64,000 nucleotides of DNA from Eledone cirrhosa (lineage: Eukaryota), in contig OZ024759.1 of NCBI GenBank assembly GCA_964016885.1, positions 26,536,001 through 26,600,000 on the forward strand, read 5' to 3'. Numbering within the stretch: position 1 is the first letter of the stretch; each line of letters begins with the position of its first letter. Position numbers and translations under genes: made by a program. The notes under the pieces were generated by a model. The model saw only the letters and a list, made by a program, of their open reading frames with translations, did no database searches and had not been told where the DNA came from. Below, piece after piece: positions 7,555 to 63,579 of the stretch.

Positions 7555-7745
7555 AGTTTATCCCGGGTTCAATCGGTGGTAACCACAGGAAGTAAGGTAC
7601 TCAATACATAGCAGAGTATAAATATTTAATATAGAAATAGCTTCTACAGGACTAGAATTGTTTCATTCGGGAGAAATCATTAGGTCTTTCTGAGCTCTTG
7701 CCGTTTCAACAGCTAGTTCCAATATGGAACTAGCTGACTCCTTGA
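7552..7745 (-). mobile_element. Family A element joined to a family B-related fragment
   Basis: Family A tail and hammerhead-like core at 7552-7685, followed directly by ctgagctcttgccgtttcaacagctagttcc-aatat-ggaactagctg. Confidence 0.55.
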
Positions 7746-8276: not shown

Positions 8277-8317
<41 letters not shown>

Positions 8318-8867
8318 AATATATATATATATATATATAGTAAATGTATATATATATATATATAGTAAATGTATATATATATATATATAGTAAATGTATA
8401 TATATATATATATAGTAAATGTATATATATATATATATAGTAAATGTGTATATATATATATATATAGTAAATGTATATATATATATATATATAGTAAATG
8501 TGTATATATATATATATAGTAAATGTATATATATATATATAGTAAATGTATATATATATATAGTAAATGTATATATATATATATAGTAAATGTATATATA
8601 TATATATATATAGTAAATGTATATATATATATATATATATAGTAAATGTATATATATATATATATATAGTAAATGTATATATATATATAGTAAATGTATA
8701 TATATATATATATATAGTAAATGTATATATATATATATATATATAGTAAATGTATATATATATATAGTAAATGTATATATATATATATATAGTAAATGTA
8801 TATATATATATAGTAAATGTATATATATATATATATAGTAAATGTATATATATATATATAGTAAATG

Positions 8868-8920
<53 letters not shown>

Positions 8921-8957
8921 AATCTATATATATATATATATATATATATAGTAAATC

Positions 8958-8988
<31 letters not shown>

Positions 8989-8992
8989 AATC

Positions 8993-9023
<31 letters not shown>

Positions 9024-9027
9024 AATC

Positions 9028-9058
<31 letters not shown>

Positions 9059-9062
9059 AATC

Positions 9063-9093
<31 letters not shown>

Positions 9094-9127
9094 AATCTAT
9101 ATACATATATATATATATAGTAAATGT
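8277..9127. repeat. Minisatellite (TA)n-GTAAAT(G/C)
   Basis: Dozens of agtaaatg/agtaaatc motifs spaced by variable TA runs. Confidence 0.95.
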
Positions 9128-12544: not shown

Positions 12545-12546
<2 letters not shown>

Positions 12547-12668
12547 CAAACAAAGTATGGTAAGATACCAGGTGAACCATAACGTACCAGAGTACTCGGT
12601 ACTTAGGATAGTAGAGTGGGATAATAGGAAAAGAGTAAGGACCCTGATTCTGGGGTCCTGAGTCTTTT

Positions 12669-12672
<4 letters not shown>
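12545..12672 (-). mobile_element. Fold-back element, family B-related subfamily
   Basis: Same tail (gtatggtaagataccaggtgaaccataacg...) with a short palindrome taggaaaagagtaaggaccc / ggggtcctgagtcttttccta. Confidence 0.65.
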
Positions 12673-13287: not shown

Positions 13288-13564
13288 AAATGTTTATAAC
13301 TGATTTAGAGCACTCAACAAGTTCCTGGAGTAAATATTCAATGATATTAAATAAATGGAAACTATATTTATAAAACCATATTTATTTTTGACTACCCAGA
13401 GAATATCCAACTGATAAGGTATGATTTTCCTGGGTATGTCTCTATTTATAAAACAAACTTTGTATTTTATCTGAAGAAAGCGTACCAAAGTCTTTTGGTA
13501 CCCTTGAAATATATATAATAAAATAAATATGGTTTTATAAATATAGTTTCCATTTATTTAATAT

Positions 13565-13570
<6 letters not shown>
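13288..13570. mobile_element. Fold-back element, family E
   Basis: Inverted arms at about 13339-13390 and 13520-13569, with the hammerhead in between. Other copies at about 35340-35425, 42377-42589 and 47930-48175. Confidence 0.7.
13465..13523 (+). ncRNA. Minimal hammerhead ribozyme motif (family E)
   Basis: ttttat CTGAAGA aagcgtaccaaa-gtct-tttggtaccctt GAAAT atat ATA ataaaa: stems I and II pair, with an AUA triplet. Confidence 0.75.
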
Positions 13571-17841: not shown

Positions 17842-18034
17842 AACGAAGGAAATGTGGTAAGGAACCAGGTGGACCATAACGCACCAAAGTACTCAATACT
17901 TGAGGTAGTAGAGTGGGTAATAGGAACCAGTAAGACCCCGAGAGCTGAGCTCAAGTCGTTTCGACGGCTAATTCAGTCCAGAATTAGCCGTCGAAACGGC
18001 TTGAGCTCAGCTGTCGGGGTCTTACTGGTTCCTA
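17842..18034 (-). mobile_element. Fold-back element, family B (partial hammerhead), in (TA)n
   Basis: An 80-bp tail followed by a palindrome at 17921-18034 containing GAAAC-ggct-tgagctc-agct-GTC. Flanked by TA repeats. Confidence 0.75.
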
Positions 18035-18164
18035 TATATATATATATATGTGTGTGTTTTTCATCGAAAAAAATGTTGAATTCATCTTCTCTTTTCATGA
18101 TATTTGGATAACATTGAGTTCTTCATACGGATTGGACACTACCGTATATTTTGGTAGATTTATC

Positions 18165-18985: not shown

Positions 18986-19130
18986 GTTTAATATAGAAAT
19001 AGCTTCTACAGGACTAGAATTGTTGCATTCAAAAAATGAAACAATTAAAGTCCTGTAGAAGCCATTTCTATATTAAACATATTTTCGCTCTACAAATGTA
19101 TTAAGTAACTTACTTACAGTAGTTACCCCA
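18986..19130 (+). mobile_element. Fold-back element, family A (diverged)
   Basis: Imperfect palindrome centred in stem II (cattc-aaaa-aatgaaac), followed by the family tail. Confidence 0.6.
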
Positions 19131-19346
19131 TATTTGTATATCTATATAAACATATTTGTGTATATATATATATATAAACATATTTGTGTATATATATATA
19201 TATAAACATATTTGTTTATATATATATGTATATATATATATAAACATATTTGTGTATATATATATATATATATAAACATATTTGTGTATATATATATATA
19301 TATATAAACATATTTGTGTATATATATATATATATATAAACATATT

Positions 19347-19393
<47 letters not shown>

Positions 19394-19398
19394 ATTTG

Positions 19399-19429
<31 letters not shown>

Positions 19430-19742
19430 ATATTTGTATATATGTATATATATATATATAAACATATTTGTATATATATATATATATATAAACATATTTG
19501 TGTATATATATGTATATATATGTATATATATATAAACATATTTGTGTATATATACATATATATATATAAACATATTTGTGTTTATATACATATATATCTA
19601 TATAAACATATTTGTGTATATATACATATATATCTATATAAACATATTTGTGTTTATATACATATATATCTATATAAACATATTTGTGTTTATATACATA
19701 TATATAAACATATTTGTGTATATATATATATATACAGATTTG

Positions 19743-19775
<33 letters not shown>

Positions 19776-19790
19776 TTGTATATATATATA
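19130..19790. repeat. Minisatellite AAACATATTTGTG-(TA)n
   Basis: Directly visible. Confidence 0.9.
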
Positions 19791-19794
19791 TAAT

Positions 19795-24260: not shown

Positions 24261-24478
24261 TAGTAATAATAAAAAATGTGAAGACTAAAATCCGAAGAGG
24301 GCTTGATAAGGATTATATATATATAAATATATATATAAATCCGTACAGCAAATATTTATTAAAATAACAGATTAAAGTTTAAGCAAAGAATTTCAGCAAA
24401 GGTTTCAGAAGACCCCGTTAAGAGTGAAAGCAGCAATTCTTTGCTTAAACTTTAATCTGTTATTTTAATAAATATATA
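24261..24478. mobile_element. Fold-back element, family G (CAGAAGA core variant)
   Basis: Arms atatttattaaaataacagattaaagtttaagcaaagaatt and its reverse complement. Related pieces at about 22405-22650, 40420-40540 and 41341-41755. Confidence 0.6.
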
Positions 24479-31487: not shown

Positions 31488-31860
31488 CTAACATCGATTT
31501 TTTGTACATGTTATAAAGATCCTTTTTATATTATATATACCAGGTGCTCTTTTGGAAACCTTTTTTATTATCATTTTACTTATATATATGTATGTATGAA
31601 TGAAGTAATTCCGTCGGAAAGGTCCAGGAAAAAAGAGTCCTCTATGTTGGTTACAGAGCTTATTAGTTATGTAATAAACAACAATAAAGATAATTATTTC
31701 ATTTACAGTGGTTTCTTGAAAGCAAGCAAATTTGCTTTCAGTCATCAGAATGAAAAAATCCTGGTATATTTATTGACAGTGGTTTTTAAAATCGACTGTC
31801 AATAAATATACAAGAATTTGTTCATTCTGATGACTGAAAGCAAATTTGTTTGCTTTCAAA
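31488..31860 (-). mobile_element. Fold-back element with complete hammerhead
   Basis: Palindrome at 31716-31859. The minus-strand arm continues through the full ribozyme motif into a tail. Confidence 0.6.
31697..31755 (-). ncRNA. Minimal type I hammerhead ribozyme motif
   Basis: Minus strand reads tttcatt CTGATGA c-tgaaagcaa-atttgc-ttgctttca-a GAAAC cact GTA aatgaaa: 7-bp stem I, 9-bp stem II and a minimal stem III. Confidence 0.8.
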
Positions 31861-32490: not shown

Positions 32491-32732
32491 CATTATTAAT
32501 ATTAATTGGCAGCATCGGTAGAGGGTCGGACAAGCTTTCCATATATATATGTATATTTGCTCTGATAGTTTGTAATATTTTTAAATAGATCTATATGATA
32601 TACATACCAACACACATATATATCCTAGAAACGATCGTAAAATGATGAATTTTTTAATATGAGGACCTTGTTCTTTGTTTTTATTCATAGTTTTTATTAT
32701 TTTATATAGATATATATATATATACACATATA

Positions 32733-32772
<40 letters not shown>

Positions 32773-32800
32773 TATTTATATATATATATATATACATATA

Positions 32801-32849
<49 letters not shown>

Positions 32850-32852
32850 ATT

Positions 32853-32913
<61 letters not shown>

Positions 32914-32928
32914 ATATTTATATATATT

Positions 32929-32961
<33 letters not shown>

Positions 32962-33279
32962 ATATTTATATATTTATATATATATATATATCTATATATT
33001 TATGTATACATATATATTTATATATATAGAGATTTATTTATATATATATAGATTTATATATATATATACATATATATTTATATATGTATATATTTATTTA
33101 TATATATATATATATATTTATTTATATATATATATTATATATAGATATATTTATATATAGATATATTTTATATATATATTTATTTATATATATATATTGT
33201 ATATATATTTATTTATATATGTATATATTTATATATGTATATATTTATATATATTTATATATATATATTTATATATATT

Positions 33280-33336
<57 letters not shown>

Positions 33337-33372
33337 ATTTATATATATATATATTTATATATATATATTATT

Positions 33373-33403
<31 letters not shown>

Positions 33404-33420
33404 TTATATGTATATATATA

Positions 33421-33517
<97 letters not shown>

Positions 33518-33574
33518 TTATATATATATATATATATTTATATATATTTATATATATATATATATATTTATATA

Positions 33575-33622
<48 letters not shown>

Positions 33623-33676
33623 TATATATATTTATATATTTATATATATATATATATTTATATATATTTATATATT

Positions 33677-33727
<51 letters not shown>

Positions 33728-33730
33728 ATT

Positions 33731-33825
<95 letters not shown>

Positions 33826-33852
33826 ATTTATATATATATATTTATATATATA

Positions 33853-33897
<45 letters not shown>

Positions 33898-33914
33898 ATT
33901 TATATATATATATT

Positions 33915-33969
<55 letters not shown>

Positions 33970-33984
33970 TTATACATATATATT

Positions 33985-34085
<101 letters not shown>

Positions 34086-34086
34086 T

Positions 34087-34126
<40 letters not shown>

Positions 34127-34181
34127 TATATATATATTTATATATATATATTTTATATATATATATTTATATATATATATT

Positions 34182-34216
<35 letters not shown>

Positions 34217-34231
34217 TTATATATATATATT

Positions 34232-34262
<31 letters not shown>

Positions 34263-34263
34263 T

Positions 34264-34299
<36 letters not shown>

Positions 34300-34323
34300 T
34301 ATATATATATTTATATATATATT

Positions 34324-34398
<75 letters not shown>

Positions 34399-34399
34399 T

Positions 34400-34581
<182 letters not shown>

Positions 34582-34631
34582 TTATATATATATATTATAT
34601 ATATATATTTATATATATATATTTATATATA

Positions 34632-34718
<87 letters not shown>

Positions 34719-34779
34719 ATATATTTATATATATATATATTTATATATATATATATTTATATTTATATATATATATATT

Positions 34780-34854
<75 letters not shown>

Positions 34855-34871
34855 TTATATATATATATATT

Positions 34872-34908
<37 letters not shown>

Positions 34909-34919
34909 ATATATTTATT

Positions 34920-34952
<33 letters not shown>

Positions 34953-35011
34953 ATATATATATTTATTTATATATATATTTATATATATATATATTTATAT
35001 ATATATATATT

Positions 35012-35046
<35 letters not shown>

Positions 35047-35058
35047 ATATATTTATAT

Positions 35059-35258
35059 GAACCAGTAAGACCCCGACAGCTGAGCTCAAGCCGTTTCGAC
35101 GGCTAATTCTGGATAATTGAGTCCAGAATTAGCCGTCGAAACGGCTTGAGCTCAGCTGTCGGGGTCTTACTGGTTCCTATTACCCACTCTACTACCTCAA
35201 GTATTGAGTACTTTGGTGCGTTATGGTCCACCTGGTTCCTTACCACATTTCCTTCGTT
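35059..35258 (+). mobile_element. Fold-back element, family B
   Basis: Near-identical to 17842-18034 in the opposite orientation; apex reads ggctaattctgga-taattgag-tccagaattagcc. Confidence 0.75.
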
Positions 35259-35267
35259 ATATATATT

Positions 35268-35303
<36 letters not shown>

Positions 35304-35604
35304 TATATATATATGCAAAAGTTTTATTTAAAATAGTTGGGTTACAAGTAAATATTTTATAACTGATATAAAGCACTCGATAAGTTATTGGAGTAGATAT
35401 ATAGTTTCTATTTGTTTAATATCGTATATATTTATATATATTTATATATATACATATATATTCATATATATATATATATATTTATATATATACATATATA
35501 TTTATATATATATTTATATATATTTATATATATACATATATATTCATATATATATATATATATTTATATATATACATATATATTTATATATGTATATATA
35601 TATG

Positions 35605-35636
<32 letters not shown>

Positions 35637-35863
35637 TATATATATATATTTACTTATATGTATATTTATATTTATATATATATATTTATTTATATATATT
35701 TATTCATATATATTTATGTATATATATATTTATATTTATATATATATATTTATTTATATATAAAAACTATATATTTATTTATATATAAAATCTATTTATA
35801 TATATTTATGTATATATATATTTATTTATGTATATATATATTTATTTATATATATATATATTT

Positions 35864-36067
35864 AGCGAGGGAAAAGTGGTAAGGAACCAGGTGGACCATA
35901 ACGCACCAAAATACTCAATACTTAGGGTAGTAGAGTGGGTAATAGGAGTAAGTAAGACCCCGACGGCTGAGCTCAAGCCGTTTCGACGGCTAATTCTGTA
36001 CTCAATTCTGTACAGAATTAGCCGTGGAAACGGCTTGAGCTCAGCCGTCGGGTCTTACTTACTCCTA
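35864..36067 (-). mobile_element. Fold-back element, family B
   Basis: Same tail plus palindrome; apex contains a duplicated aattctgtac. Confidence 0.75.
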
Positions 36068-36362
36068 TATATATATATTTATATATTTATATATATATAT
36101 ATTTATATATTTATATATATATATATTTATATATTTATATATTTATTATATATATTTATATATATTTATATATATATATATTTATATATATATATATTTA
36201 TATATATATATTTATATATATATATATTTATATATATATATATATATTTATATATTTATATATATATATATATAAATATATATATATATATTTATATATA
36301 TATATATTTATATATATATATATTTATATATATATACATTTATATATATTTATATATATATT

Positions 36363-36393
<31 letters not shown>

Positions 36394-36410
36394 ATTTATA
36401 TATTTATATT

Positions 36411-36441
<31 letters not shown>

Positions 36442-36442
36442 T

Positions 36443-36473
<31 letters not shown>

Positions 36474-36572
36474 TTATATATATATATATATTTATATATA
36501 TATTTATATATATATTTATATTTATATATATATTTATATATATATTTATATTTATATATATATTTATATATT

Positions 36573-36603
<31 letters not shown>

Positions 36604-36608
36604 ATATT

Positions 36609-36641
<33 letters not shown>

Positions 36642-36654
36642 ATATTTATATATT

Positions 36655-36687
<33 letters not shown>

Positions 36688-36696
36688 ATATTTATA

Positions 36697-36765
<69 letters not shown>

Positions 36766-36778
36766 ATATTTATATTTA

Positions 36779-36811
<33 letters not shown>

Positions 36812-36884
36812 ATATATATTTATATATATATATTTATATATATATATTTATATATATATATTTATATATATATATTTATATATT

Positions 36885-36918
<34 letters not shown>

Positions 36919-37039
36919 TATATATTTATATATATATATATATTTATATATTTATATTTATACATATATATATATATATATATATTTATATGTATATTTA
37001 TATATATATATATATATATTTATATATAAATAAATGAGA

Positions 37040-37230
37040 AGGACGGTGAATTGGTAGTATCGGTAGAGAGTAGGACGCTATGCTTTGACGAATAGAGTTG
37101 CGGCCATTTATGGTCTGATTTCAAATACCGCCGAGGTTAATTTTGCCTTTCATCCTTACGGGGTCGATAAAATAAAATTCCAGTAATATACTGGGTATTT
37201 GTTGGCCTTGTGCCAAAAGTGTAAACAATG
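37040..37230 (+). mobile_element. SINE S1
   Basis: Same core and head. Confidence 0.85.
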
Positions 37231-37644
37231 ATTAGAATGAGGAGATTGCTAACATCTATAGGCAAGGATGAATACCTTATTTCCCATTCAACTAACAACC
37301 CGCCCATTGATCAATCATCCATAAATATATAAGTTCGCTAAGTATTGATTAATTATCTGTATCGATTACACAAGTACAGCAGGATAAGTAAATAATTCCC
37401 TCTATATTTTATAGATAGTTACGTATTTCTGATGGGGGTGGAGGAGATATAATGCATACACACACATATATATATATAAAAATATGTATATATATATGTG
37501 TATATATATGTATGTATATATATATGTATGTATATATATGTGTGTATGTATATATATGTATAGATAAGTATGTATGTATATGAATATATATATATATATG
37601 TATATATATATGTATATATATATGTATATATATATATATATGTG

Positions 37645-37702
<58 letters not shown>

Positions 37703-37842
37703 TGTATGTATATATATATATACATATATATATATGTATATATATATGTATACATATATATATACATATATATATATGTATATATATACGTATATATATA
37801 TATATGTATATATATATATGTATATATATATGTATATATATG

Positions 37843-37873
<31 letters not shown>

Positions 37874-37950
37874 GTATATATATGTATATATATGTATATA
37901 TATATGTATATGTATATATATGTATATATATGTATATATATATGTATATG

Positions 37951-38027
<77 letters not shown>

Positions 38028-38064
38028 GTATATATGTATATATATATATGTATATATGTATATA

Positions 38065-38113
<49 letters not shown>

Positions 38114-38258
38114 GTGTATGTATATATATGTATATATATATGTGTATGTATATATATGTATATATATATATGTATATATATATGTGTATGTATATATATA
38201 TATGTATATATATGTATATATATATGTGTATATATATATATGTGTATATATATATATG

Positions 38259-38355
<97 letters not shown>

Positions 38356-38448
38356 GTGTATATATATATATATATGTGTATATATATATATATGTGTATG
38401 TATATATATATATATATATATGTGTATATATATATATATATGTGTATG

Positions 38449-38481
<33 letters not shown>

Positions 38482-38482
38482 G

Positions 38483-38513
<31 letters not shown>

Positions 38514-38590
38514 GTATATATGTATATATATATATATATGTATATATGTATATATGTATATATATATATATATGTATATATGTATATATG

Positions 38591-38621
<31 letters not shown>

Positions 38622-38622
38622 G

Positions 38623-38659
<37 letters not shown>

Positions 38660-38701
38660 GTATATATATATATGTATATATATATATGTATATGTATATA
38701 T

Positions 38702-38753
<52 letters not shown>

Positions 38754-38756
38754 GTG

Positions 38757-38801
<45 letters not shown>

Positions 38802-39092
38802 GTATATATATATATATGTATATGTATATGTATATATATATATGTATATGTATATGTATATATATATATGTATATGTATATATATATATGTATATGTATA
38901 TATATATATGTATATGTATATATGTATATGTATATATATATATATGTATATATATATATGTATATGTGTATATATATATATGTATATGTGTATATATATA
39001 TATGTATATGTATATATATATATATGTATATGTATATATATATATATGTATATGTATATATATATATATGTATATGTATATATATATATATG

Positions 39093-39124
<32 letters not shown>

Positions 39125-39125
39125 T

Positions 39126-41898: not shown

Positions 41899-42144
41899 TT
41901 TAAAATCTCATTCCATAGCTCTTAACTGTTACTCAATTTATTGACATCGAAATACACACATACAAACACTCTCACAGATATATGTATGTATCTATCCTTC
42001 GTGATCCTGTCTCTATTTTTGTACTCCTGAAGAAGGTCTAAAACGAGACACGACGACCTTTCTTTCACCTTTTTCATATAAAGCGTGAAACTAAGAAGAC
42101 TTTTCGTACCACTGTTTGTTGTTTCCTTGAACTATATATATATA

Positions 42145-42334
42145 TAGGAACGAGTAGGACCCCGAAGGCTGAGCTCAAGCCGTTTCGACGGCTAATTCAG
42201 TCCAGAATTAGCCGTCGAAACGGCTTGAGCTCAGCCGTCGGGGACCTACTCGTTCCTATTACCCACTCTACTACCCTAAGTATTGAGTACTTTGGTGCGT
42301 TATGGTCCATCTGGTTCCTTACCACATTTCCTTC

Positions 42335-42337
<3 letters not shown>
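42145..42337 (+). mobile_element. Fold-back element, family B
   Basis: Palindrome at about 42145-42258 plus tail, between TA runs. Confidence 0.75.
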
Positions 42338-42420: not shown

Positions 42421-42480
42421 TTCATTATATATATTTCAGGGATATCATATTAAAAATATGTTATGCCTTCTTCAGACAAA
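42421..42480 (-). ncRNA. Minimal hammerhead ribozyme motif (family E variant)
   Basis: Minus strand reads tttgt CTGAAGA aggcataacata...tatgatatccct GAAAT atat ATA atgaa. The stem II sequence differs from the other family E copies but still pairs. Confidence 0.65.
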
Positions 42481-42589
42481 ATACAATATAGACAGTTTTA
42501 TAGATAAATAGATTTGACATACCGTTGAACATCGACTTGTATTTGAAAAAGTTGATTTGGCAGTGATTTTCAAATACAAGTCGATGTTG

Positions 42590-43600
42590 ACCTTACTGAT
42601 ATGCGACGTCAGGGAGACTGGCCTATAGTTCTTGGCCTCCGCTCTACTACCTCCTTTATGGATAGGGCATATTGTGCCTTCTTTCAGCTCCCTGGGTAGT
42701 ATACCGCTAGCTAAGGAGCTTCTGAAGAGCATCTTCAGTGGAGTTGCTAAGGCCCGCTTACATATTTTTAGGAGAACTGCTGGGAATCCATCAGGTCCAG
42801 CAGCCGAGTCTGTTCTAATTTCATCAATGGCGTACACCACATCCTCCTCCGTTATGTCTATGTGGTTGATGGTTGCCATTTCTTGATGTAGTGTTGTGGC
42901 ATCAAAGAACTCCTCTGGCTTCGTTATTTGCATGTGCCTCAGTGGACATGTGAAGACACTTTTGTACTGTTCGTTCAGTATTTCACATATCTCTTGGGGA
43001 TTTTCGGTTAATGAACCGTCCGTGTGGAAGAGTGGTCCAATATTGCAGTGTACTGAGGCAGTTTCTTTTGCAAATTTAAAGAAGGCCTTAGGGTTTGTTT
43101 TAATGTTTTCTATGGCCCTGTTCTCTTTCCTTGCCCTCTCATTCTCATGTGAAAGCTTGAGTGCAATCTCGGTGTCAAGTAGTGCACCTTTCAAATAGGA
43201 TTCCTTCTTGTTTTGGTTTTGTTGACTATTCAACTGGTTTGAGAGTTTAGTTCTACGTCTCATAAGGATTTTCTTATCTCTGGGAATAAGATTTTTGTGT
43301 TTGTTTGCCTCTTTCTCCGGGACACACTTTTTGCATATGGTGTGTATCGTTGTCATGAAGTGTTGAAATTGTGTGTTAGTGTCTTGTGTGGCGATGTTTG
43401 CACTCCATGTTTGCTTCCGGATTTCACTCTTAATCTTCTTCCAGTCAGCCCCGTAGAAGTTAAGGCTGGATAGCGTCCCGGAGCTTCTTGGTGGTTTTGT
43501 CTCTGTTGGTTCTCTTGGACCACATATCATTAGCTCTACCAAGTTATGATCCGAGAGAATTGTTGGTGTCACCTTTACATTGTGGATGAGCACTTCGTTG
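42590..43600 (-). mobile_element. CR1-clade LINE, inverted 5' segment (endonuclease end to RT start)
   Basis: Open frame with SDHNLV (APE C-terminus), AGPDGFPA..LK and PIHKGG...KNYRPVSLTSHISKV. Confidence 0.9.
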
Positions 43601-44329
43601 GATGATGCATCTTTTTCTTCACATATCATGAAGGTGGCGACAGCATGTAGACGATTCGCTGGCTGGATCTTGAGGACTTTCCTTACAAGAGATCGAGACA
43701 CCATGTTGACACTGTGGAGGACTTTTGTCTTAAGCCGCCTGGACTACTGCTCCCAGCTGTGGTCACCCCATAGTGTCAAACTAACCACAGAGCTTGAGGC
43801 AATCCAGCGAAGCTACACCAAGAGGATTGCCAAGATGAGGGAGACAAGCTACTGGGAGAGGCTGAAGGAACTGAACCTCTACTCCTTGGAGCGAAGACGG
43901 GAGAGATACGCAGTGATCTACATGTGGAAAATCCTGGAGGGACTAGCACCAAACTTTGGCATTGGGAGCTGGACCAACCGTCGAACAGGACGTCACTGTG
44001 TGGTGCCAAAGGTCCCGTCTTCCACATCTAGAATAAGGAGCAGGTATTGCAATAGCCTGGGATTCAAGGGCCCTCAACTCTTCAACAGGCTGCCGAGGCA
44101 TCTGCGAGACTTGCATGACGTGGAGGTGGATGTCTTTAAGAAACATCTCGACACCTTGTTATCCAGGATCCCGGATGAGCCCACAGCAAGACACGAGGGA
44201 AACCTAAGGGCAGCAGCAACAAACTCCCTCCTACACCAGTGGCCAACCTATACAGGCTGGAGATAAAATGTGTAGCAACAAGGGCGGTGCCCCAGCATGG
44301 CCTCAGCCGGATGGCTGAAACAGGTAAAA

Positions 44330-44331
<2 letters not shown>
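43598..44331 (+). mobile_element. CR1-clade LINE 3' segment
   Basis: LDYCSQLWSP...YWERLKELNLYSLERRRER is the typical CR1 C-terminal region. The 3' UTR cccagcatggcctcagccggatggctgaaac runs into (TA)n. A 3'-UTR-only copy lies at 53206-53251 (-). Confidence 0.9.
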
Positions 44332-47230: not shown

Positions 47231-47855
47231 GCAATAAAATGGTTTGTGTCTGTTAGATACCGACTCTATATTGGTAAAAATGTATAAAATATTGAAACCA
47301 GACGAAAAGAATACATGCATACATACATACATACGTACGTACGTACGTACGTGCGTGCGTACATACATATATACATACGCACACACATACATACATAGTA
47401 TAGTGACAATTATAGAAATTTATGAATGATTTGGCAATGATTTCCGTGTAGGCGGTTGCCATATTTGGGCGTTGTGAAATCTTTAACGACACAGCAACAC
47501 GACTGTGTGTGTGTTTGTGCGTGTCTGTGTGCGTCTGTCTGTATATATATTTGTACAAATGTCAATACATACGTATGTGTGACTGTATACGTTTATATAA
47601 ATATATATACGCACACACACACAAAATACACCCACGCAACTTTATAATAGTTTACAAGGTTTCTGTTTGTCTGTATATATATTTGTACAAATGTCAATAC
47701 ATACGTATGTATGACTGTATACGTTTATATATATATATATATATATATATAAAAACGTATACAGTCATACATACGTATGTATTGACATTTGTACAAATAT
47801 ATATACAGACAGACAGAAAGCTTGTAAACTATTATAAAGTTGCGTGGGTGTATTT

Positions 47856-52398: not shown

Positions 52399-52959
52399 AC
52401 TAAAAATTTCAAGTCTATGAAAAATGTCGCATGAGATGCCTCATAGTAGAAACGAATTGAGGCAAATATTTTGCAAAACTCATTTCGGCCATGTTGAATC
52501 CACCTACTAATTAGGTGGATTCAACATGGCCGAAAACAATTAGTGATCGCTAACGAGTAAAACAACTTACTAATTACTTTCTATATCGCATTAACTAATA
52601 TTCAGTTAATTGGCCGGGTTTTAATTCTTTGATGTCACATAGAGACATCAAAGAACTATCATATTTAACTGAAATTCCCTAATGAATTACTGGTACACTG
52701 ATTAGTTTTGCATGATTAACTAATTATGAAATATGTGGAACTATTGTTAAATTTTGTAGGGATGAGGGATTACTGACATTCACCAATGTAAATCACGAAT
52801 ATCCCATGATCCCTTTCTCTTTCTTTCTGTCTATATATCTCTCACCTTCTTTCTCCCTTCCTTTCTTTCTCTCTCTCTTTCTCTCCCGCCCCCGTATGTC
52901 TTTCTCTATCTCCCTATTTCTCTTTTCCTACGCACGCACACACACACACATACCCACCC

Positions 52960-53030: not shown

Positions 53031-53158
53031 TAAAGAGAGTCAGCATCCCGACGGCTGAGCTCCGGCCGTTTCGACAGCTGGAACCGAACGCTGCTACTCT
53101 AAGTATCGAATACTCTGGTACGTTATGGTCCACCTGGTTACTTACCACACTTCCTTTG

Positions 53159-53160
<2 letters not shown>
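53031..53160 (+). mobile_element. Family B-related element, inverted head plus tail
   Basis: Inverted cccgacggctgagctccggccgtttcgacagctgg joined to the family tail, ending in (TA)n. Confidence 0.6.
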
Positions 53161-53258: not shown

Positions 53259-53300
<42 letters not shown>

Positions 53301-53302
<2 letters not shown>

Positions 53303-54022
53303 CGAAGGAAATGTGGTAAGGAACCAGGTGGACCATAACGCACCAAAGTACTCAATACTTGAGGTAGTAGAGTGGGTAATAGGAACCAGTAAGACCCCGA
53401 CAGCTGAGCTCAAGCCGTTTCGACGGCTAATTCTGGACTCAGAATTAGTCCAGAATTACTCAGAATTACTCAGAATTAGTCCAGAATTAGTCCAGAATTA
53501 CTCAGAATTACTCAGAATTAGTCCAGAATTAGTCCAGAATTACTCAGAATTACTCAGAATTAGTCCAGAATTAGTCTCAGAATTACTCAGAATTACTCAG
53601 AATTAGTCCAGAATTAGTCCAGAATTACTCAGAATTACTCAGAATTAGTCCAGAATTAGTCCAGAATTACTCAGAATTACTCAGAATTAGTCCAGAATTA
53701 GTCCAGAATTAGTCCAGAATTACTCAGAATTACTCAGAATTAGTCCAGAATTAGTCCAGAATTACTCAGAATTACTCAGAATTAGTCCAGAATTAGTCCA
53801 GAATTACTCAGAATTACTCAGAATTAGTCCAGAATTAGTCCAGAATTAGTCCAGAATTACTCAGAATTACTCAGAATTAGTCCAGAATTAGTCTCAGAAT
53901 TACTCAGAATTAGTCCAGAATTAGTCTCAGAATTACTCAGAATTAGTCTCAGAATTACTCAGAATTAGTCCAGAATTAGCCGTCGAAACGGCTTGAGCTC
54001 AGCTGTCGGGGTCTTACTGGTT

Positions 54023-54026
<4 letters not shown>
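53301..54026 (-). mobile_element. Fold-back element, family B, with tandem array at the apex
   Basis: Tail and arms match the other B copies; the arms are separated by a 531-bp array. Confidence 0.8.
53441..53971. repeat. Variant-unit minisatellite (AGAATTAGTCC / AGAATTACTC / AGAATTAGTCTC)
   Basis: Counted by eye: 23 x 11 bp, 23 x 10 bp and 4 x 12 bp, totalling 531 bp. Mostly a 42-bp 2+2 higher-order period. Confidence 0.95.
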
Positions 54027-54059
<33 letters not shown>

Positions 54060-54107
54060 GTATGTATATATGTATATGTATGTATATATATAGGTATATG
54101 TATGTAT

Positions 54108-62642: not shown

Positions 62643-62771
62643 TAACAAAGAAAGTGTGGTAAGGAACCAGGTGGACCAGATTACTCGATACTTAGGGTAG
62701 TAGAGTGGGTAATAGGAAAAGAGTCAGGACACCAACGACCGGAGCGCAGCCGTCGGGGTCCTAACTCTTTT

Positions 62772-62775
<4 letters not shown>
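62643..62775 (-). mobile_element. Fold-back element, family B-related subfamily
   Basis: Tail plus arms taggaaaagagtcaggac / gtcctaactcttttccta. Confidence 0.65.
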
Positions 62776-62805
<30 letters not shown>

Positions 62806-62806
<1 letters not shown>

Positions 62807-62989
62807 GTTATTCCGGGTTGAATCGGAGGTAACCACAGTAAGTAAGGTACTCAATACATTGCAGAGTATAAAAGTTTTAATATAGATGAGATTCTACAGG
62901 ACTAGAACTGTTTCATTCTTTAGAAATCATCAGGGATTCCTGATGATTTCTAAAGAATGAAACAGTTCTAGTCCTGTAGAATCTCATCT
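62806..62989 (-). mobile_element. Fold-back element, family A
   Basis: Tail plus a perfect palindrome (62884-62989, about 51-bp arms, 4-nt loop) that places a hammerhead core on both strands. Related copies at 1-76, 7552-7690 and 18986-19130. Confidence 0.75.
62935..62983 (+). ncRNA. Minimal type I hammerhead ribozyme motif (family A)
   Basis: gattc CTGATGA t-ttc-taaa-gaa-t GAAAC ag-ttctagtc-ct GTA gaatc: intact core, 5-bp stem I, stem III and a GUA cleavage triplet. The first pair of stem II is U-U. Activity is untested. Confidence 0.75.
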
Positions 62990-63490: not shown

Positions 63491-63579
63491 TCAGGACCCC
63501 GATGGCTGAGCTCCGTCCGTTTCAACAGCTAGATCCGAACTGAGTAACGGTGTAAATGTTTTTTACCGCCTTCATTTGT

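Follow-up and report, generated by a model that had tools for sequence, protein, structure and literature searches.

A probable young minisatellite at the head-to-head join of a likely Penelope-type insertion in Eledone cirrhosa

Background

Penelope-like elements (PLEs) possess reverse transcriptases (RTs) that form the sister group of the telomerase RT (PMC8557442), and their truncated insertions share a distinctive anatomy in which a tailed copy is accompanied by an inverted, tail-less copy (PMC8557442, PMC3846280). With purified PLE protein, both strands of the target are cleaved and extended, and synthesis begins at two internal positions on the RNA, between which the tail lies (PMC11167929); for the inverted structure, self-priming has been the favoured source (PMC3846280). 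In an octopus, some Penelope families have been active recently (PMC13282606). The junctions of such insertions can be set beside several products of host repair and replication: templated insertions, which are generally shorter than 25 bp (PMC12426944), iterative priming on one base (PMC4032859), snap-back and trans priming (PMC5728401), the stalling of replication forks by inverted repeats with short spacers (PMC7999016) and the minisatellites derived from transposons, which are common (PMC9659126). A literature search that matched titles and the beginnings of abstracts, with few subscription papers covered, returned no arrays at PLE junctions.

Here we analyze a 64,000-nucleotide stretch of Eledone cirrhosa contig OZ024759.1, hereafter the window, in which one copy of a palindromic element carries a 531-bp array of variant units exactly where its two inverted arms meet.

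Architecture of the insertion and its relatives

The array-bearing insertion and four sister copies in the window have a common layout (Table 1): in all five, a copy with a tail is set head to head against an inverted copy that lacks it, within (TA)n. The inverted, 5'-truncated copy adjoins the 5' end in 5/5 copies, the (TA)n target is likewise found in 5/5, and the loose ends seen in reads are TA runs. At the array locus the arms (53379-53439 and 53967-54027) are exact reverse complements over 61 bp, the one-sided tail is 78 bp long (77 bp in a second family of the window, which has a full hammerhead core), and 53301-53440 is identical to the sister at 35059 in 140/140 positions. The spacer from GGCTAATT to AATTAGCC, on the other hand, measures 541 nt here versus 8, 18, 20 and 8 nt in the sisters at 17842, 35059, 35864 and 42145, in agreement with the short apexes that the original prediction had described for them. 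The duplicated AATTCTGTAC that it had pointed out at 35864 is also present, and represents a small event of the same kind as the array.

Because the copy-specific variants are common to both arms within each copy, an identical spacer is found in opposite orientations in the copies at 17842 and 42145, and opposite-strand joints occur at many different positions in public reads, the join is likely to be made anew at every insertion. On the 192-base stretch tested, the family is represented by 14,155 contigs in X1 and 37 contigs in X4, and by 19,159 and 19,627 raw reads in X19 and X20, respectively. The window also contains older relatives, at 12545-12672, 62644-62773, 53031-53160 and 63491-63543, which share about 78-88% identity with the element and have shorter arms and other joins.

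Table 1. Features of the array-bearing insertion and its sister copies (positions in the window)
Feature	Position	Strand	Basis or remark
(TA)n target, left side	53263..53301	.	TRF and sequence
One-sided 78-bp tail, 3' part of longer copy	53302..53379	- (element sense inferred here)	common to all five copies
Left arm, 5'-truncated element copy	53379..53440	-	sequence comparison
Variant array (A, B, C; 50 units)	53441..53971	+	sequence, TRF; last AGTCC doubles as right-arm start
Right arm, inverted tail-less copy, exact complement of left arm	53967..54027	+	sequence comparison
Candidate hammerhead 3' half: GAAA, 6-bp stem with palindromic loop, GTC	53985..54007	+	read from sequence; 5' core absent
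(TA)n-rich target, right side	54025..54107	.	TRF
Sister copy, 8-nt spacer, left-side tail	17842..18035	-	sequence comparison
Sister copy, 18-nt spacer	35055..35258	+	element seen to run on as AATTGAGTCC upstream of arm
Sister copy, 20-nt spacer including one 10-nt templated duplication	35866..36068	-	sequence comparison
Sister copy, 8-nt spacer as in 17842, opposite orientation relative to tail	42144..42337	+	sequence comparison

Judged by its architecture, this high-copy element is likely of the Penelope type. Translated segments of the window, 171 in all (169 of 170 filter-passing ones and 2 more), were scanned against Pfam and gave no RT or GIY-YIG match, the same scan also having missed a piece of a LINE ORF2, and no protein relative was found for the 46-aa open frame of the arm. 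Of six family motifs compared with a consensus file of Naiad and Chlamys elements, five found no match in a file whose line breaks could hide matches, and the sixth recovered only unrelated GC-rich entries. Pattern scans of metagenome and viral contigs returned 15 and 3 loci, all 18 of which match over 19-26 bases only and are unrelated.

Composition and order of the array

The array resolves, with no stray letter, into 50 units of three types: A (AGAATT+AGTCC, n=23), B (AGAATT+ACTC, n=23) and C (AGAATT+AGTCTC, n=4). This unit parse bears out the composition first proposed for it, as well as the proposal that the pieces come from the element's own join, which units B and C span from antisense to sense. 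The prevailing order is two A followed by two B. The lag-4 identity of the unit order is 0.72, a value matched in 1 of 20,000 shuffles, and two-unit runs make up 19 of the 27 runs, matched in none of 20,000, so that the 2+2 period noted at the outset is real. Moreover, 19 of the 25 inner runs are exactly two units long, which rejects an independent or first-order choice of units (p 1.3e-7).

The description of the array as telomere-like is not confirmed: it contains no TTAGGG, TTAGG or their complements, has a GC content of 33% and lies in the interior of the window. Its head-to-tail units, in the range of about 10-60 bp and with variants interspersed, are those of a minisatellite. None of its 114 distinct 31-mers occurs elsewhere in the window; unit B is absent outside the array from both strands of the whole window, and units B and C, together 27 of the 50 units, are missing from every other element copy in it. 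An independent satellite family is thus not indicated by the 31-mers; the lack of contigs on 53462-53492 counts only weakly against one.

Reduction of the array to a short seed

Using a beam search that removes exact tandem duplications of at least 8 nt, and whose step count is an upper bound, we were able to reduce the 557 bases from arm to arm to 37 with no substitution. This 37-base root consists of the end of the left arm, one AGAATT and the start of the right arm. The 11 duplication steps measure 21, 10, 22, 11, 22, 33, 42, 42, 127, 53 and 137 nt, and the five of at least 42 nt account for 401 of the 520 added bases. In this path unit B is the duplicated join, and unit C results without mutation from a 22-nt duplication, which explains why B comes next after C in all four cases (p 0.037). 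The order of the units is accordingly fully explained by 11 exact block duplications, an outcome that is one part of what the original prediction had named as speaking against its own reading; together with the 2+2 period, the same path supports the secondary amplification that it had also allowed for.

Shuffled orders (n=60) needed 13-21 steps, and none bottomed out below 13; 28 of the 60 attained the same root, in 15-21 steps, so reducibility alone is weak evidence and it is the step count that differs. At the level of units, the real order collapses to 12 units in 5 steps, against 10-21 steps in the 132 of 150 shuffles that reached 12 units and the 18 that never did. A greedy parse opens with two short phrases, of 8 and 10 nt, copied from the complement of the arm with priming on 1 and 2 bases; these are followed by nine stretches copied from sequence already present in the array, the longest being 137 nt. 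As in templated insertions, the insert is copied from its flanks, with the 1-2 priming bases read from the sequence. There are no differences over 653 bases, which at assumed rates of 1e-8 to 2e-9 allows up to roughly 0.5-2.3 million generations. An array free of mutations fits a single event equally well, and the duplication path gives no dates.

Support in sequencing reads

The read comparison covered the left arm and the first 52 of the 531 array bases in four public runs. The best public runs carry 20 of 29 sampled words (0.69), and no RNA runs carrying the sampled words were listed. Depth over 53462-53492 is 0 in all four runs, with no contig or read over the body of the array, and no second array, second allele or intermediate length was seen in them. 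X1 contigs turn into the right arm at 53448 (13 contigs) and 53458 (24 contigs); direct and seed-sized joins recur among these contigs. The 24 seed-like contigs include 11 with a base missing at 53440 and 4 with one missing at 53442, and part of them may be plain overlaps of an older subfamily. The raw reads of X19 and X20 stop at the AATT at 53432 in 6951 and 7154 molecules, respectively. This AATT is likely the cut site of the library and is present in every unit, for which reason the raw reads could not show the array.

An artefact, in which the array was generated or lengthened by polymerase slippage on the hairpin as the library was amplified, or by an error in the consensus, would account for the missing words (20/29 held, 0.69) and for the zero depth over 53462-53492 in all four runs, the more so as the best-matching run may be the assembled sample itself. 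We nevertheless give it a small probability, since contigs drop rare variants, so that a hole in coverage proves nothing, the raw reads end at a likely cut site repeated in every unit, and only 52 of the 531 array bases were compared; further, an insertion with identical arms may well be private, and the array is error-free and logically nested. In the assembly the array is a real feature; the reads neither confirm nor refute it.

The hammerhead question

The element had been called ribozyme-bearing, a claim that is unproven: a candidate hammerhead 3' half can be drawn on the plus strand (Table 1), but the 5' core is absent. Upstream of the GAAAC motifs of the family, which here stand in truncated copies, CTGAnGA or TTGAnAA occurs within 90 nt in 0 of 13 cases in the window, and no CUGAnGA core was found in the 30-nt loose ends of the read contigs. 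The predicted lowest-energy fold at the candidate half-hammerhead favours another hairpin (z 0.65). Rfam returned 0 matches at gathering score for the whole window and, by E-value at the array locus, only chance matches of the hairpin type and no hammerhead family. Since the core is missing, the fold unremarkable and no Rfam hammerhead matches, the array copy, as sequenced, cannot function as a hammerhead; such a ribozyme may have been present in the parent element.

The second family mentioned above, with inverted arms and a one-sided tail of 77 bp, is found at 62806-62986, 7560-7735 and 18986-19136. It shows at 62940 a full minimal hammerhead core, CTGATGA...GAAAC...GTC, of a kind described in PMC4209133, and its 62887 member has a weak match to the RAGATH-1 hammerhead (22.5 bits versus a cut-off of 56.3). 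The array family compared with this family (62887, 7600 and 18986) scores above all 300 shuffles in 1 of 3 comparisons, that with 7600 only. The 7600 copy has an arm-like stretch just upstream of its core, pointing to shared ancestry or a template jump. The loose ends behind 53439 (85 contigs in X1 and 1 contig in X4) are likely the upstream continuation of the element; in one clean contig, their sense strand has what looks like a 3' splice site immediately ahead of the sequence that would pair with the stem in the arm. It is conceivable, from these letters, that a hammerhead would be completed only after splicing.

Other repeats of the window

Variant arrays of at least 500 bp number 11 in the window and cover 15,261 of its 64,000 bases (24%). 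One of them, a 6.4-kb variant TA array at 32703-39125, is host to two of the sister copies. Another of the 11, at 8277-9119 or 8277-9126, comprises 30 units of (TA)n + GTAAAT, and the adjoining element starts with the same letters, making this a second array built from an element/target junction. The tail of the palindromic 18986 element is followed immediately, at 19137-19792, by 17 ACATATTTG-containing units in TA. A 423-aa frame at 42475-43743 was considered as a PLE and rejected as being LINE ORF2-like. The LINE fragment at 42600-44330 has its ORF2-like part (E 5e-14 to human LINE-1 ORF2) opposite to its 3' part, an arrangement as in twin-primed inversions, and TA runs at both flanks. Further unrelated palindromic inserts occur at 47533-47855, 31716-31859, 24352-24475, 13339-13569 and 52483-52535; two related elements (13471 and 48119, also 42475) contain CTGAnGA...GAAA motifs.

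Origin of the array

We judge it rather probable that the array is a young minisatellite of a PLE-type join, in which a short templated repair insertion was followed by about eleven tandem duplications. Going by the anatomy and the published PLE biochemistry, both (TA)n strands would have been primed, with synthesis beginning on the element RNA at two points separated by 78 nt. One of the resulting cDNAs would have had the tail and the other not, and the two would have ended close to the same AATT-rich stretch. Their identical 3' ends would then have been connected in head-to-head fashion by microhomology between self-complementary bases (AATT, GTAC, AG/CT), and at the array locus priming on 1-2 bases might have slipped once, leaving one extra AGAATT in an end joining of the polymerase-theta type. 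We infer this joining of cDNA ends for the inverted structure, and the present data do not separate it from self-priming. Exact duplications of 10-33 nt suffice to produce units B and C, and those of 42-137 nt supply most of the length; they would have arisen later, most likely by slippage or break repair at the fragile near-palindrome over subsequent cell generations. For the 401 bases that sit in blocks of 42-137 nt, such later events are the better fit. We imply no function for the array.

It is rather doubtful, in our estimate, that a single integration event produced all 531 bp of the array, with RT or host polymerase priming the cDNA ends on each other, and that such insertions mint minisatellites genome-wide. 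If host repair were the agent, the 3' ends would have primed each other repeatedly in growing blocks, through polymerase theta and perhaps a handover to polymerase delta. The array without substitutions and the identical arms imply that everything is recent, mutual priming would give units A and B naturally, out-of-register annealing of repetitive ends could also give nested duplications, and iterated patchwork insertions have been described (PMC12426944, PMC5728401). Yet error-free copies of 53-137 nt would be needed in a process whose templated insertions are generally below 25 bp (PMC12426944), the four sisters show at most one 10-nt duplication, and the other expanded arrays of the window need no integration event; we therefore think one-shot repair by the host unlikely.

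Should the RT of the element itself have reiterated a short RNA stretch in the manner of telomerase, this would mean that the retroelement relative nearest to telomerase is itself able to add repeats. Such a reading could draw on unit A, which on the minus strand repeats the end of the cDNA in direct orientation and could be an RNA slip, on the kinship of PLE and telomerase RTs (PMC8557442), and on the RT slippage, likened to telomerase, that has been reported at L1/Alu tails and in the I factor (PMC3415434). That known slippage, however, belongs to the start of cDNA synthesis rather than to the 5' join. No other copy contains unit B, and a linear element RNA consequently cannot template it; B and C, or 27 of the 50 units, bridge the antisense/sense join and within the window are confined to this array. 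As the order is, besides, far from random (19 of 25 inner runs equal to two, p 1.3e-7, rejecting an independent or first-order choice of register), synthesis on a fixed template is disfavoured, and we accord telomerase-like reiteration a very slim chance. The reiterative short-template synthesis proposed in the original prediction hence lacks support for the bulk of the array. This is a single unreplicated locus, likely of ordinary amplification, and telomerase-like activity is not demonstrated by it.

Returning to the seeded minisatellite that we favour, the locus offers an unusually clean record of the birth of such an array: seed, variants and higher-order period can be derived without mutation, and the sister copies display the starting state. 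The thousands of joins of the family could serve to test the origin of the inverted structure of PLEs, i.e. twin priming with end joining versus self-priming.

Comparison with known systems

The insertion resembles those of EN+ PLEs with pLTRs (Penelope/Poseidon, Neptune and Naiad; PMC8557442, PMC3846280) in its head-to-head inverted copy and its tail at one end, and also in the (TA)n target (Neptune, Naiad), the very high copy number and the palindrome at the inverted junction. Unlike theirs, its tail is 78 bp long versus 30-40, the present truncated copies show no ORF and no complete hammerhead core, and it has a tandem array at the junction, which the accessible portions of PMC8557442 and PMC3846280 do not describe. 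With telomerase and the telomerase-like RT slippage at L1/Alu tails and the I factor (PMC3415434) the array shares short head-to-tail repeats beside a retroelement; in contrast to telomerase, no fixed template yields B or C, the order is hierarchical, and the repeat is neither G-rich nor terminal. The likeness to polymerase-theta insertions and SD-MMEJ (PMC4032859, PMC5728401, PMC12426944) lies in sequence copied from the flanks in both orientations with 1-2-base priming. These fit the seed and the joins of the sisters, whereas the full array is about twenty times their usual size and strictly periodic. Like the minisatellites derived from transposons (PMC9659126), the array has units of 10-12 bp, interspersed variants, an origin in a mobile element and higher-order periods, here of 42 and 137 bp; it differs from them in that its units are a piece of the new join, rather than of the element, and in that its whole history is still readable. 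What we see here is a set of known processes, combined in an unusually legible way.
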